In this document: one piece after another, positions 1 to 3,000 of the stretch | Position numbering within the stretch: the first letter of the stretch is position 1 | Layout: each line of letters starts with the position of its first letter | IMG/VR virus record: IMGVR_UViG_2529292834_000008 | Location: 1-14,504 of that record | Direction: 5' to 3' (one strand) | DNA from: a virus | Lineage: Duplodnaviria > Heunggongvirae > Uroviricota > Caudoviricetes | Length of the DNA stretch: 14,504 nt | Made by a program: the position numbers

Positions 1-3000
1 CGGAACGTTATCGTTCACACGGACCGTGGAGGCCAGTACTGTTCAGCAGATTATCAGGCGCAACTGAAGCGGCATAATCTGCGTGGAAGTATGAGCGCAA
101 AAGGTTGCTGCTACGATAATGCCTGCGTGGAAAGCTTCTTTCATTCGCTGAAAGTGGAATGTATCCATGGAGAACACTTTATCAGCCGGGAAATAATGCG
201 GGCAACGGTGTTTAATTATATCGAATGTGATTACAATCGGTGGCGGCGGCACAGTTGGTGTGGCGGCCTCAGTCCGGAACAATTTGAAAACAAGAACCTC
301 GCTTAGGCCTGTGTCCATATTACGTGGGTAGGATCATCCACCCTAAAACTATGACCAAGTATGAGATCGTCATCGTAACTACAATTGCCGTGAATATGTA
401 TGATTTGCTCGTCTGGAACGGCATAGATCTGCTGCAAGGTATTTGTATAATTAAATGAAAAATAGATGCTTTCTCTTGGTATGGGCGGGATGTATTGCTT
501 AGGATTGTAAGCATCGGCTATGTTAATCCCTTTAACCCAATCAGCGAATTGCTCCTTCAAACGAGCTGACAGCATTTGTGTGATTTTATTTACTTCATAT
601 TGGTAATCGTGATGATAAGCATCGCTCCAATCATCGGTATTGTATGAAGCCAAAAATATCTCACTGTTTTGAAGGATAAGCTCATAATCAATTTCACCTA
701 AAGCATTTTCTAACTCATTCCACTCGTCCCCAGCAGGAATGTATTCTTCTATCGCGTCATATAGATCTTGGTCATTTTTTTCTACATACGACTTAAAGTG
801 CTTGTATCCTGTTGGTAAGCCATGACGCATGTCAAATCCATTTCCTATTATGTAAAGCCTCATTGTTTTTCCCTTAGTCGAATTGTATAAAAATACTAAC
901 ATGGCCTGCTCCACGTTGACTACTATCCCCTCCTTTGAGTAATGCCTTCATCAGATGTAACAACATTTGCGAGCTTCCACAGTTCGCTCAAAGCGGACTA
1001 GAAGGTTAGCTTGCGTCGGACTTGGCGTATTTAAAGAAGTGCTGGTGGAGACTGGTTGTTGTGTTCCATTTCTACAGAACAAAATCACAGAAACTATACC
1101 CAATAGTTATATTGAATCAATGATGAGACAGCCTCATATTTATCAGGACTGGTGTACGTCCAATACAGGAGGTTGTCGTGCTGGTTCTCAAATGTGCGCT
1201 AGCTATTGCGGCTGTAATGGCAATTTATTGTCTTGCTGTTGTTCTTACGGATCGCCTTTCTGATTGATTTTATATTGGCGAGGTGACGTGAGTTAAGTAG
1301 AATTGCTGCGGGTGCTTGAGGCTATCTGCCTCAGGCATGAACACCAAAAGGCAGATAGAGAAAAGCCCCAGTTAACATTACGCGTCCTGCAAGACGCTTA
1401 ACATTAATCTGAGGCCAATTTCATGCTAGACACATGTAGGTTAGCCTCTTACGTGCCGAAAGGCAAGGAGAAGCAGGCTATGAAGCAGCAAAAGGCGATG
1501 TTAATCGCCCTGATCGTCATCTGTTTAACCGTCATAGTGACGGCACTGGTAACGAGGAAAGACCTCTGCGAGGTACGAATCCGAACCGGCCAGACGGAGG
1601 TCGCTGTCTTCACAGCTTACGAACCTGAGGAGTAAGAGACCAGGCGAGGGAGAAATCCCTCGCCACCTCTGATGTGTCAGGCATCCTCAACGCACCCGCA
1701 CTTAACCCGCTTCGGCGGGTTTTTCGTCGCATAATGAGGTTGTAATTTTAGCTACCATTAGACTATCCTAAGGATCTCAAACAGATCTATTTTGCATCAA
1801 ATTTGGTGCATGGCTTTGCCAATAATCGGAAAACAAAAGGACTCATTAGTATGAGCTGCCCACTCAAAAAACACACGCGGTTGAGTATTCCGCCTCGCGA
1901 TAAAAGCGTTGTGGCAGTCCCTCGCCCAGCGATTGATGAAAACTGCGCACATCGTGAACAAGTGAAAAATGCTTTTGATTTCGGTTTTTCTCGTTATGAG
2001 AAAGCCATGGAAGAACTTTCAAAAGTGTAATGATGGGTATTGTGCTCTATGGCTGAGATTGTTGAAGGAGTGCATTACCTTACGGTTGATGATCTTGTTG
2101 AAATCAATCGTTCCCTAATTGAATTACAGACGCCAGATGAGCCCGTTGGTGTTCTGAGTCCAGATAACTTAAGTTCTTCTCAGGCCCGTCCCAGCATGGT
2201 TCGATGGTATGAACAGACTAATGACATGTTTGTACTGGCATCGGTATTGATTGAAAGTCTGATTCAGAATCATCCGTTTGCTAATGCGAACAAACGAACA
2301 GCTATGATGGCTGGTTACGTCTTCTTGTTGTTGAATGGCTATGAGTTAACAGCACCAGGCGATGAAATCGTGGAAATGGCAGAGGGACTGGCCTGCAAAA
2401 CCTATACTCGAGAAGATCTCGAGAACTGGTTGTGTTATTGGTCTCGCGCGTATGACAGCCGGGAATTATGTAAAACAGGCGCAACTATTGTTTTGTATGA
2501 AACTATCAAGCTTAAAATAGAACAGCAAAACTAAAGGTGCTTCCAATGAAAACCCGCTTCGGCGGGTTTTGTTTTTTCCTGGCATTCTGGTTTACAATTC
2601 GCACGCCAGCCTGAACAACTGGCACCTGCTGCGCCAGCAGAGACAACCGATGGCGCACAAAAACAAATTTCACAATTCTGATACCGACCTTGCCATCCGG
2701 CACGGGCGGCGTTCACACGCATTTAAAACCGACTGGTACCAACACCCACCATGTACTGAAGAACAGGCCGAATGGCTAATTCATAACTACCGCAGGCGCG
2801 GATACGAGGTTAAGAAAGCCCTCAGCCTCGATTATCGTCACTGGATAATCTATGTCAGGCTCCCTTATTCCGAACGCCCACCGCGTCCGTCCCGCACATT
2901 CCAGCAACGCATCTGGAGGTAACGTGCGGGTATTACTTCGACCTGTTCCGGTACCGGAACTTGGGCTGGTGGTGCTAAAACCGGGCCGTGAATCCATGCA

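Follow-up and report, generated by a model that had tools for sequence, protein, structure and literature searches.

Genes and other features of the locus

The window, i.e., the whole stretch of 14,504 nucleotides that was analyzed (IMG/VR virus record IMGVR_UViG_2529292834_000008), carries an intact hok toxin ORF, the elements of its mRNA and, on the opposite strand, a predicted Sok antisense RNA with a predicted promoter of its own (Table 1). These features lie between the replication genes and the Doc/DUF968/RusA/Q region of a prophage, and the edges of the conserved module, as set by column entropy across related loci, are sharp (approx. 1290 and approx. 1725).

Table 1. Positions of the genes, RNA elements and signals of the hok/mok/sok locus in the window
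Feature	Position	Strand	Details
hok (mok-hok) promoter	1275..1303	+	-35 TTGGCG 1275-1280, 17-nt spacer, -10 TAGAAT 1298-1303; promoter scan
Predicted full-length mok-hok mRNA	1310..1724	+	approx. 415 nt
tac (translational activator element)	1310..1321	+	GGGUGCUUGAGG; would pair with fbi in full-length RNA and with ucb in processed RNA
First leader hairpin	1322..1358	+	stem arms 1322-1331 and 1349-1358; Rfam consensus structure
Predicted Sok antisense RNA	1355..1431	-	71-77 nt; placed by homology with sokW and sokC
Predicted Sok parts		-	5' tail ~1431→1412; long terminator hairpin ~1411→1369; then GGGGCUUUU (CUCUAU)
ucb / anti-SD	1363..1369	+	AAGCCCC; predicted partners: mok SD region (closed form), tac (open form)
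mok translation-initiation and Sok-target (sokT) hairpin	1411..1448	+	SD GAGG 1411-1414, AUG 1423-1425 in stem, loop CUAGACA 1426-1432; Rfam consensus
mok ORF	1423..1635	+	70 codons, in frame with hok, common stop codon
Predicted Sok promoter	1438..1466	-	-35 TTGCCT 1466→1461, 17-nt spacer, -10 TAACCT 1443→1438; start ~1431
hok toxin ORF	1480..1635	+	51 aa, intact; hok SD GGAG at 1467-1470
Tyr47 codon, candidate TadA A-to-I editing site	1618..1621	+	TAC then G (Tyr→Cys); read from the sequence
3' UTR stem-loop	1643..1664	+	9 bp, GAAA loop; presumed protective 3' end of processed mRNA; MFE
fbi (fold-back inhibitory element)	1685..1697	+	CCUCAACGCACCC; predicted to pair with tac
Intrinsic terminator	1704..1724	+	stem 1704-1710/1715-1721, UUCG loop, U run 1720-1724; MFE

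The Hok protein matches the whole of the HOK_GEF profile PF01848, i.e., positions 1-42 (E = 1.2e-23; 82.9 bits, cutoff of 22 bits), as well as the "MokW-like host killing" family phrog_251 (114.7 bits); its match to the NCBIfam Hok subfamily NF007279 (48.5 bits) falls under the 73-bit cutoff of that model. RefSeq names the identical protein hokD (WP_000813254.1). An initial sequence-only reading had described the 51-aa protein as intact with a single TM helix, and this was borne out, as one hydrophobic stretch covers residues 7-24, with K5 on one side and R26/K27 on the other; Cys30 is present. The traits of the Hok family, i.e., one N-terminal TM helix, a periplasmic C-terminal part with the conserved Cys, and a Cys or an editable Tyr near the C-terminus, are all present in this protein as read from its sequence. 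Residue 47 is Tyr, not Cys, and full toxicity may hinge on RNA editing; the mRNAs of hokD, hokC and hokE are reported to be edited at the equivalent codon (PMC12214031; bioRxiv 10.1101/2025.08.07.668861), with an editing level of 6% for hokD mRNA in K-12 (PMC12214031). A HokD peptide of identical sequence is reported to be toxic (bioRxiv 10.1101/2025.08.07.668861), and HokW is both toxic and located in the inner membrane (PMC8621323).

An in-frame ORF in the mok position, likewise described earlier, starts with the ATG at 1423, which precedes the hok start by 57 nt (1480-1423), and encodes a product of 70 aa. MokW and MokC are annotated with the identical arrangement, which is the usual one in the hokC/hokD/hokW subfamily. 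A 29-aa ORF upstream of hok showed no match in Pfam, NCBIfam or PHROGs.

Promoter and 3' end of the predicted mok-hok mRNA

The proposal that this hok copy is independent of relBE holds, as the cassette has its own promoter and a full hok leader. The hok promoter matches 9 of the 12 consensus positions, and most related loci keep the -10 as well as a TTkGCG -35 at a distance of 17 nt. Transcription is predicted to start at approx. 1310, where the Rfam leader model also begins. The predicted fold of the full-length mok-hok mRNA has an MFE of -176.4 kcal/mol (z = -8.1), and 96.5% of structure cells are paired over 70 loci. Toward the 3' end, the 3' UTR stem-loop is 99% paired in the 70 loci (helix 17), and its protective role is presumed by analogy with R1 (PMC9841398). 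The terminator shows three compensatory pairs in the same loci (helix 18), and conservation stops at approx. 1725.

Predicted structure of the leader

The Rfam family RF01794 covers the leader fully (positions 1-157 of 157; 122.3 bits as compared to a gathering score of 59 bits; E = 5e-28), and the match runs along the hok strand from 1310 to 1485. The sequence-only reading had named an Rfam scan as a check on both the hok mRNA and Sok; for the former the match (122 bits, hok-sense strand) is the expected result, while for Sok a match was obtained but is misleading as evidence, given its strand. The RF01794 "sok" model matches the hok-sense strand not only here but also in K-12 hokC and hokB, in 933W and in an IncFII plasmid, and this strand is antisense to annotated sokC, sokB and sokW. 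As RF01794 describes the hok-sense leader, the match does not demonstrate an antisense transcript, and Rfam-derived annotation would put "sok" on the wrong strand.

The 10-bp inverted repeat that had been reported in the leader is real, with arms CTATCTGCCT (1322-1331) and AGGCAGATAG (1349-1358), but the coordinates first given were one base off. Its supposed place in the folded 5' region of the hok mRNA is supported by the Rfam consensus, in which its two arms pair as the stem of the first hairpin of the leader; this hairpin is 97% paired in the 70 loci, with one compensatory AU→GC pair (helix 2).

In the full-length MFE structure, tac forms 12 pairs with positions 1685-1697, i.e., with fbi, and these are 100% paired in the 70 loci. 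As the helix is invariant across this close set, covariation is uninformative there; compensatory tac/fbi differences were found in hokB, IncFII and IncHI1B homologs, the covariation coming from four distant homologs only, compared by eye. A Klebsiella locus (L090) was dropped from this comparison, having no recognizable tac. Constrained folding of the full-length RNA favored the closed form by 12.4 kcal/mol, a margin that shrank to 1.9 kcal/mol for RNA truncated at 1684. In folds of the leader alone or of the 3'-truncated mRNA, tac is predicted to pair locally with 1329-1339 (hairpin given as 1312-1322/1328-1338 in these folds), a local 5' hairpin that would fit the metastable hairpin described for R1. 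The tac/ucb helix was absent from the unconstrained MFE structures of these two RNAs, which contained the local 5' hairpin instead; the Rfam consensus includes tac/ucb pairs (1363-1369 with 1310-1317). In the full-length MFE structure, the mok SD region is predicted to be paired with ucb (1365-1367 with 1413-1415), whereas the truncated RNA, when folded as the tac/ucb conformer (1.9 kcal/mol from the MFE), is predicted to leave the mok SD unpaired. The sokT hairpin is retained, at approx. -12 kcal/mol, in 16 of 18 sequence haplotypes.

The predicted Sok antisense RNA and its promoter

A Sok RNA had been expected on the minus strand over roughly 1390-1480. The strand agrees with our placement, but the extent had to be corrected to approx. 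1431→1355, and positions 1438-1466 represent the predicted promoter rather than RNA. Projection onto the window of sokW from phage 933W puts Sok at 1361-1431, and projection of K-12 sokC puts it at 1355-1431. In the predicted Sok fold (-30.5 kcal/mol; z = -5.3), a tail is followed by a long hairpin and then a U tract, and the hairpin shows three compensatory pairs among the 70 loci (helix 5). The predicted Sok overlaps the first 9 nt of mok, as is the case for K-12 sokC/mokC and for annotated sokW/mokW.

A generic sigma-70 scan found the hok promoter and missed the Sok promoter because the -10 of the latter (TAACCT) matches only 3 of 6 consensus positions; the Sok promoter was thus placed by homology. 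It is co-positioned with a TTGCCT-17-TATCCT motif read in the R1-type IncFII locus, and positions 1438-1479 of the window are identical to 933W hokW/sokW; a mutation in the sokW -10 abolished antitoxin activity (PMC8621323). Overall, the sequence features predicted for a cis-encoded Sok with its own promoter and terminator, positioned over the mok start, are present.

Identity and spread of the cassette

All elements of the plasmid R1 paradigm (hok promoter, tac/fbi clamp, ucb anti-SD, mok, sokT hairpin, 3' protective hairpin and terminator) were found in the window, with mok in frame with hok. Every regulatory element is intact and conserved over at least 70 distinct loci; the full leader is kept in 78 of 82 related copies (mostly viral contigs), and the same leader type was seen in many phage contigs and genomes. 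Of 5426 complete E. coli genomes, 4768 contain near-identical matches to a 601-nt region, and this frequency, the Rfam E value and the z score of the full-length mRNA fold rule out a chance match. The initial identification of a Hok type I toxin locus holds, given the PF01848 match and the full RF01794 leader, and positions 1275-1724 very probably represent a complete type I toxin-antitoxin cassette (hok/mok/sok, hokD/hokW subfamily) that forms a self-contained moron within a lambdoid prophage of E. coli. The module is an ordinary, complete copy of an already well-known toxin-antisense-RNA system, and such a textbook module has little weight as a discovery; its closest relative, hokW-sokW, was annotated in 1999 and tested in 2021. 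There is, on the other hand, an annotation gap, as the RefSeq records inspected carry the hokD CDS only and leave out mok and Sok.

Variability of the Sok-recognition patch

At positions 1416-1437, which span the Sok 5' tail and its target, loci that share a toxin are 4-7 times more variable than in the other non-coding parts (0.34 as compared to 0.05-0.085 differences per site), and 13 Sok tail haplotypes occur among the 70 loci, a set chosen beforehand for encoding one identical toxin. Compensatory changes outside Sok maintain the target hairpin. Predicted tail/target duplexes reach -38 kcal/mol for cognate and -20 kcal/mol for non-cognate combinations, and the patch differs between some co-resident copies. 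It is possible, if somewhat doubtful, that the 16-22 nt around the mok start are a fast-evolving specificity determinant that splits same-toxin prophage modules into many "Sok types" insulated from one another; the hok of another prophage would then escape neutralization by a resident Sok. Three points argue against this reading: one genome can carry up to 3 copies of the same haplotype, the loci were chosen for an identical toxin, and the remainder of Sok is still complementary across types. Same-genome pairs were too few for a comparison of Sok types between co-resident copies, and strict exclusion of copies of the same type was unsupported, as the 44-nt haplotype of the window was found in 1874 genomes with up to 3 copies each. 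The only prior statement found in the literature searched for the variable patch is that chromosomal Soks give no protection against R1 hok (PMC9841398). The patch might merit a population-level survey of insulation between prophage copies in the same genome.

Proposed mechanism and likely role

The mechanism proposed here combines sequence features of the window with dynamics taken from plasmid R1 hok/sok (PMC9841398) and from hokW-sokW of Sp5. A moderate promoter would give rise to the mok-hok mRNA, in which the 5' tac would be clamped to the 3' fbi and ucb would hold the mok Shine-Dalgarno, so that the full-length RNA would be neither translated nor bound by Sok. Slow 3' trimming to approx. 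1684 would strip fbi, after which tac would pair with ucb and both the mok SD and the target hairpin would be freed. Sok would be transcribed from its own promoter inside mok as an antisense RNA of approx. 71-77 nt, and its 5' tail would pair, across the mok start, with the loop and the 5' arm of the target hairpin; this pairing would block translation of mok, and hence of the coupled hok, and would trigger cleavage of the duplex. Once Sok synthesis stops, the stable processed hok mRNA would be translated, and Hok would enter the inner membrane and depolarize the cell. Processing of the hok mRNA at its 3' end, duplex cleavage by RNase III and killing upon Sok decay are known from R1 (PMC9841398) and, in part, from hokW-sokW (PMC8621323).

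For hokW-sokW, toxicity, neutralization by sokW from its own promoter and partial dependence on RNase III/Hfq have been shown, and the native prophage copy has a role in lysis and phage release (PMC8621323). By analogy, our best guess is that the cassette would help with lysis and phage release on induction; prophage retention or the exclusion of other phages are possible roles. The extrapolation is from a homolog with 94% identity, which is located elsewhere in its phage. The chromosomal hok loci tested in earlier work (cited in bioRxiv 10.1101/2025.08.07.668861) gave no post-segregational killing.

One alternative is that the main role is anti-phage abortive infection within a prophage defense island, rather than lysis aid or prophage stabilization. 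The neighborhood, with an AbiH-like ORF, a Doc toxin and a Ser/Thr kinase with PADLOC PD-T4-6/Stk2 matches, is suggestive of such a role, as is another genome in which an ATP-dependent nuclease occupies the slot directly upstream of hok, and R1 hok/sok is reported to exclude T4 (Pecota & Wood 1996, as cited in PMC8621323 and PMC10305079). The AbiH-like ORF in the window is, however, truncated, a genome-wide study reports hok as not enriched near defense systems (bioRxiv 10.1101/2025.08.07.668861), and the sole experiment on a prophage copy found a positive effect on the phage's own release (PMC8621323); we regard abortive infection as an unlikely main role.

A structurally intact cassette could also be physiologically silent, i.e., a hitch-hiking remnant like the K-12 chromosomal hok loci, if toxic Hok levels were never reached because of Sok excess, a weak hok promoter or rare editing of Tyr47 to Cys. 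The 9/12 match of the hok promoter and the editing of just 6% of hokD mRNA in K-12 (PMC12214031) are consistent with silence, and chromosomal hokA, hokB and hokC showed neither post-segregational killing nor activation by rifampicin in earlier work summarized in bioRxiv 10.1101/2025.08.07.668861. Silence nevertheless appears quite improbable, since all regulatory elements are intact and conserved over the at least 70 distinct loci, the defects of K-12 loci (IS insertions, leader loss) were not found here, the HokD peptide is toxic when expressed (bioRxiv 10.1101/2025.08.07.668861), and the 94%-identical hokW-sokW yields a phenotype from its native prophage copy (PMC8621323).

There is very little chance that what the locus really makes is a Hok of 70 aa, extended at the N-terminus (Mok-Hok) and with its own function, mok being more than a coupling device: the in-frame layout is conserved in MokC, MokW and the window, and translation from the mok AUG necessarily gives an extended protein, but mok codons 2-5 vary freely among loci, even where Hok is identical (MLDTC, MLNTC, MNGKS, MSHKC, MTCTC and others), making a protein-level constraint on the Mok N-terminus unlikely, the changes in mok follow the upkeep of the RNA hairpin rather than protein conservation, and in R1, where mok is out of frame, what matters is that mok is translated, not which protein results (PMC9841398).

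Comparison with known systems

A close relative of the locus, also in a lambdoid prophage, is hokW-mokW-sokW of Stx2 phage 933W and Sakai prophage Sp5 (AF125520, Plunkett 1999; Takada et al. 2021, PMC8621323). The 933W locus shows approx. 94% nucleotide identity over positions 1290-1707 of the window and shares with it the leader, an in-frame mok of 70 aa, the geometry of Sok and the Sok promoter; HokW is identical to the Hok of the window at 47 of 51 residues, with the four differences at the C-terminal end. The Sok 5' tail/target patch reads CCAATTTCATGCTAGAC in the window and CTCAATCCATGCTGAAC in 933W. The 3' end of the 933W locus differs, with no CCCGC-UUCG-GCGGG terminator at the aligned position, and hokW sits near the right end of its phage, whereas the cassette in the window lies between the replication genes and Q.

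The chromosomal hokC(gef)/mokC/sokC locus of E. coli has an identical tac, a leader very similar to that of the window (RF01794 score of 118 bits) and an in-frame MokC of 69 aa, with sokC overlapping the first 9 nt of mokC; HokC is identical to the Hok of the window at 41 of 51 residues. The terminator hairpin of sokC is shorter, giving a Sok of 59 nt as compared to approx. 71-77 nt in the window, and the K-12 copy is cut by IS186 just past the ORF, which removed fbi.

The hok/sok (parB) locus of plasmid R1, for which a role in post-segregational killing has been demonstrated, has its elements, as read in the R1-type IncFII locus (RF01794 score of 107 bits), in the same order as the window, i.e., tac, hairpin, ucb, Sok terminator hairpin, mok SD and target hairpin, Sok promoter, hok SD, hok, 3' hairpin, fbi and terminator. 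R1 Hok, on the other hand, is identical to the Hok of the window at only 21 of 51 residues, the R1-type mok is out of frame with hok (offset of 59 nt), and the R1-type tac and fbi differ in sequence from those of the window while their complementarity is kept.

The protein of K-12 hokD (relF, Qin prophage) is identical to that of the window (51 of 51 residues), and the DNA is near-identical from the hok SD through fbi (approx. 1466-1705). The K-12 gene, however, follows relBE and has no leader homology, and hence lacks the hok promoter, tac, ucb, mok and the Sok gene; it is a degenerate form, and its junction was found in only 3 of 82 related copies examined. In agreement with the sequence-only reading, the hok of the window is not downstream of relBE; homology with K-12 begins only at approx. 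1466, upstream of which the window has its full leader, and no RelB or RelE match was found among the upstream ORFs scanned, which include the AbiH-like ORF. A conserved block of 320 nt was also observed upstream of hok in the window. The protein name hokD therefore applies to the gene in the window and the architecture of the K-12 locus does not; the name masks that most copies are complete hokW-like cassettes, unlike their K-12 namesake.

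A complete hok/mok/sok cassette

The window carries a real, complete and wholly conventional hokD/hokW-type hok/mok/sok cassette in an E. coli prophage, a type of cassette that is already known; the identity of the locus and its regulatory logic are well supported. The Hok product matched Pfam HOK_GEF in a profile search (82.9 bits; cutoff 22) and PHROG 251 ("MokW-like host killing"), and shared 51/51 residues with K-12 HokD, 47/51 with HokW of the Stx2 phage 933W, 41/51 with HokC and 21/51 with R1-type plasmid Hok. An in-frame mok-like ORF starting at 1423, proposed in an earlier sequence-only reading, was borne out, as its 70 codons read into hok; K-12 MokC and 933W MokW are likewise annotated in frame with hok. 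The Tyr47 codon and the G that follows it (1618-1621, plus strand), a candidate TadA A-to-I editing site (Tyr to Cys), were kept in 70/70 aligned loci, with 933W reading CUACGAA at this site; editing of this codon would mean an extra layer of control.

Features of the cassette, its relatives and its surroundings
Feature	Position	Strand	Detail	Basis
hok ORF	1480-1635	+	51-aa product MKQQKAMLIALIVICLTVIVTALVTRKDLCEVRIRTGQTEVAVFTAYEPEE	
mok ORF	ATG at 1423	+	70 codons, continuing into hok in the same frame	ORF list
Promoter-like site	1275-1303	+	TTGGCG-17-TAGAAT, just 5' of 1310	promoter scan
Predicted Sok promoter	1466->1461, 1443->1438	-	TTGCCT, 17-nt spacer, TAACCT; upstream of Sok	homology
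3' hairpin	1643-1664	+	9 bp	full-length fold
Terminal hairpin	RNA end 1724	+	GC-rich UUCG hairpin, then five U	full-length fold
RF01794, comparison locus L007	602-754	-		Rfam search
RF01794, comparison locus L008	667-818	-		Rfam search
RF01794, comparison locus L003	1521-1695	+		Rfam search
hokB tac/fbi			GGGUGCCUGAGA with UCUCAUGGCACCC	distant-homolog comparison
IncFII tac/fbi			GGCGCUUGAGGC with GCCUGAAGCGCC	distant-homolog comparison
IncHI1B tac/fbi			GGUGCUG with UGGCACC	distant-homolog comparison
Gene order, first part			probably truncated AbiH-like ORF; conserved 320-nt block; hok/sok; 59-aa ORF; Doc/Fic toxin	
Gene order, second part			DUF968, RusA, Q; Ser/Thr kinase, PP2C phosphatase; DNA methyltransferase; four tRNAs; lysis genes, terminase	

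Leader and mRNA fold

The Rfam family RF01794 ("sok antitoxin") aligned along its full length with plus-strand positions 1310-1485 (122.3 bits, E=5e-28). Its consensus opens with the hok mRNA 5' end (GGGUGCUUGAG...) and closes at the hok start codon, and it matched the hok-sense strand in K-12 hokC, K-12 hokB, 933W and an IncFII plasmid, i.e., the strand antisense to annotated sokC, sokB and sokW, in every locus tested. RF01794 is a model of the hok mRNA leader, not of Sok; a match on the hok-sense strand is therefore strong evidence of a bona fide hok leader (containing the Sok complement) and no evidence for an antisense transcript.

The RNA from 1310 to 1724 folded with an MFE of -176.4 kcal/mol (z=-8.1), in which the 5' translational activator element (tac; GGGUGCUUGAGG, 1310-1321) was paired with the 3' fold-back inhibitory element (fbi; CCUCAACGCACCC, 1685-1697) and the anti-SD box (ucb; AAGCCCC, 1363-1369) with the mok Shine-Dalgarno region (GAGG, 1411-1414). 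When tac/ucb pairing was enforced by constrained folding, the cost was 12.4 kcal/mol for the full-length RNA and only 1.9 kcal/mol for RNA truncated at 1684, in which the mok Shine-Dalgarno was then free. These computed energetics are as predicted by the R1 model of 3'-processing-dependent activation (PMC9841398). In truncated, nascent-like RNAs, tac paired locally with 1329-1339 to give a hairpin, in agreement with the metastable hairpin described for R1 hok mRNA (PMC9841398). The 10-bp inverted repeat reported from the sequence alone exists, although it had been placed one base too far right; its arms are 1322-1331 and 1349-1358.

Sok antisense RNA

In the annotation of 933W, sokW is a minus-strand RNA of 71 nt that starts 9 nt inside mokW and projects by alignment onto window 1431->1361 (minus); K-12 sokC, likewise starting 9 nt inside mokC, projects onto 1431->1355. 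In the fold of the predicted 77-nt Sok (-30.5 kcal/mol, z=-5.3), a long hairpin lies between a 5' tail and GGGGCUUUUCUCUAU. At the position equivalent to the predicted Sok promoter, the R1-type locus has a TTGCCT-17-TATCCT motif, and 933W is identical to the window over 1438-1479. Takada et al. found that sokW driven by its native promoter neutralises HokW, an effect lost when the -10 is mutated (PMC8621323). The interval of 1390-1480 previously suggested for Sok includes the predicted Sok promoter and the 5'-most 40 nt of the predicted RNA, but leaves out its terminator, given the placement at 1431->1361/1355 by sokW/sokC projection.

Conservation and variation

In a megablast search, a 601-nt region matched 4768/5426 complete E. 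coli genomes, in some at as many as 10 places, and 102 phage records. With the toxin as query, an IMG/VR scan yielded 576 relatives, of which the best 80 all encode the identical protein. Among 82 copies (these best 80 loci pooled with previously fetched annotated phage and E. coli loci), the full leader was kept in 78 and the K-12 relE-hokD junction was present in only 3. Column entropy delimited a discrete module from ~1290 to ~1725 with unrelated flanks. Across 70 distinct aligned loci, the predicted full-length structure had 96.5% of its cells paired; compensatory changes fell in the terminator, the first hairpin and the Sok-terminator hairpin. The tac/fbi helix was invariant in this close set; in more distant family members, tac and fbi were altered together. 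The same leader type was found in Escherichia, Shigella, Citrobacter, Pseudocitrobacter, Kluyvera, Salmonella and others.

Amid the otherwise conserved module, a hypervariable patch at 1416-1437 (columns ~160-182 of the locus alignment A2) takes in the mok start, the 5' tail of Sok and the target hairpin's 3' arm. Differences here amounted to 0.34 per site vs 0.05-0.085 in other non-coding parts; the corresponding CDS figure, 0.008, is biased, as loci were selected for identical protein. The Sok 5' tail occurred as 13 haplotypes among the 70 loci, all with identical Hok, and the window's haplotype was present in 1874/5426 E. coli genomes. The target hairpin was held at about -12 kcal/mol in 16/18 haplotypes, through compensatory changes in its 3' arm, outside Sok, and predicted tail/target duplexes reached -20 kcal/mol for non-cognate vs -38 kcal/mol for cognate pairs. 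The patch could reflect selection for insulated Sok types; against this, the same haplotype was present up to three times per genome, and the separate sample of same-genome pairs was too small to judge insulation.

Prophage setting

The window is a segment of a lambdoid prophage. Positions 1290-5000 showed 99.8% identity to several E. coli chromosomes, with a break exactly at 1290. This mosaic junction, left of which those chromosomes are unrelated, separates the -35 of the hok promoter from its -10; a TTkGCG -35 at 17 nt is still present in most loci. At least 11 other loci carry, directly 5' of hok, a block of ~320 nt (983-1290 in the window) that is 86-99% conserved. Within this block lies a hydrophobic 29-aa ORF (1178-1267, plus strand; MLVLKCALAIAAVMAIYCLAVVLTDRLSD) with a strong AGGAGG Shine-Dalgarno and a GTG start, in which 4/8 variable sites are synonymous third positions; this ORF, which had no match in Pfam, NCBIfam or PHROG and no RefSeq annotation, may encode a small membrane protein that has been overlooked.

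Further upstream, the AbiH-like ORF (303-914, minus strand) is probably truncated, as only the first ~185 profile positions are covered (PF14253 positions 1-183 of 260; phrog_19951 1-185 of 288); after it comes a separate 91-aa ORF (phrog_21932), and both lie within 43-914 on the minus strand. In another genome, the slot 5' of hok is occupied by an ATP-dependent nuclease. Downstream, a 59-aa ORF (1851-2030, plus strand; phrog_2208, listed there as function unknown; RefSeq "hypothetical") directly precedes a Doc/Fic death-on-curing toxin (2040-2534, plus strand; TIGR01550, 128 bits), and the two look like a type II antitoxin-toxin pair beside the type I module. Directly 3' of the Q antiterminator (4336-5031), a Ser/Thr protein kinase, with PADLOC matches to mad6, PD-T4-6 and Stk2, and a PP2C phosphatase (5101-6680, plus strand) form a pair reminiscent of phage-exclusion kinases. 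ARAGORN identified four tRNA genes at 8347-8656 on the plus strand (Met-CAT, two Lys-TTT, Gly-TCC), of which the Rfam gathering search found three, missing 8424-8500.

Comparison with known systems

The biological role of the window cassette is one that we infer. For hokW-sokW of the Sakai prophage Sp5, mitomycin C depletes sokW, the increase in HokW is RecA-dependent, and deletion of the cassette halves phage release (PMC8621323). R1 hok/sok confers plasmid stabilisation and partial T4 exclusion (as cited in PMC8621323 and PMC10305079), and a recent survey reported hok to be enriched in prophages, and not near defence systems (bioRxiv 10.1101/2025.08.07.668861).

Unlike in the window, the homologous cassette of 933W lies near the right genome end; the cassette thus acts as a mobile moron. 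K-12 hokD, located downstream of relBE in Qin, aligns to the window only from ~1466 (the hok Shine-Dalgarno) to fbi. The earlier suggestion that the window copy may be independently regulated was correct; it has its own promoter, tac, ucb, mok and sok, all of which are missing from K-12 hokD. The window copy is a complete ancestral-type cassette, and K-12 hokD a rearranged remnant.
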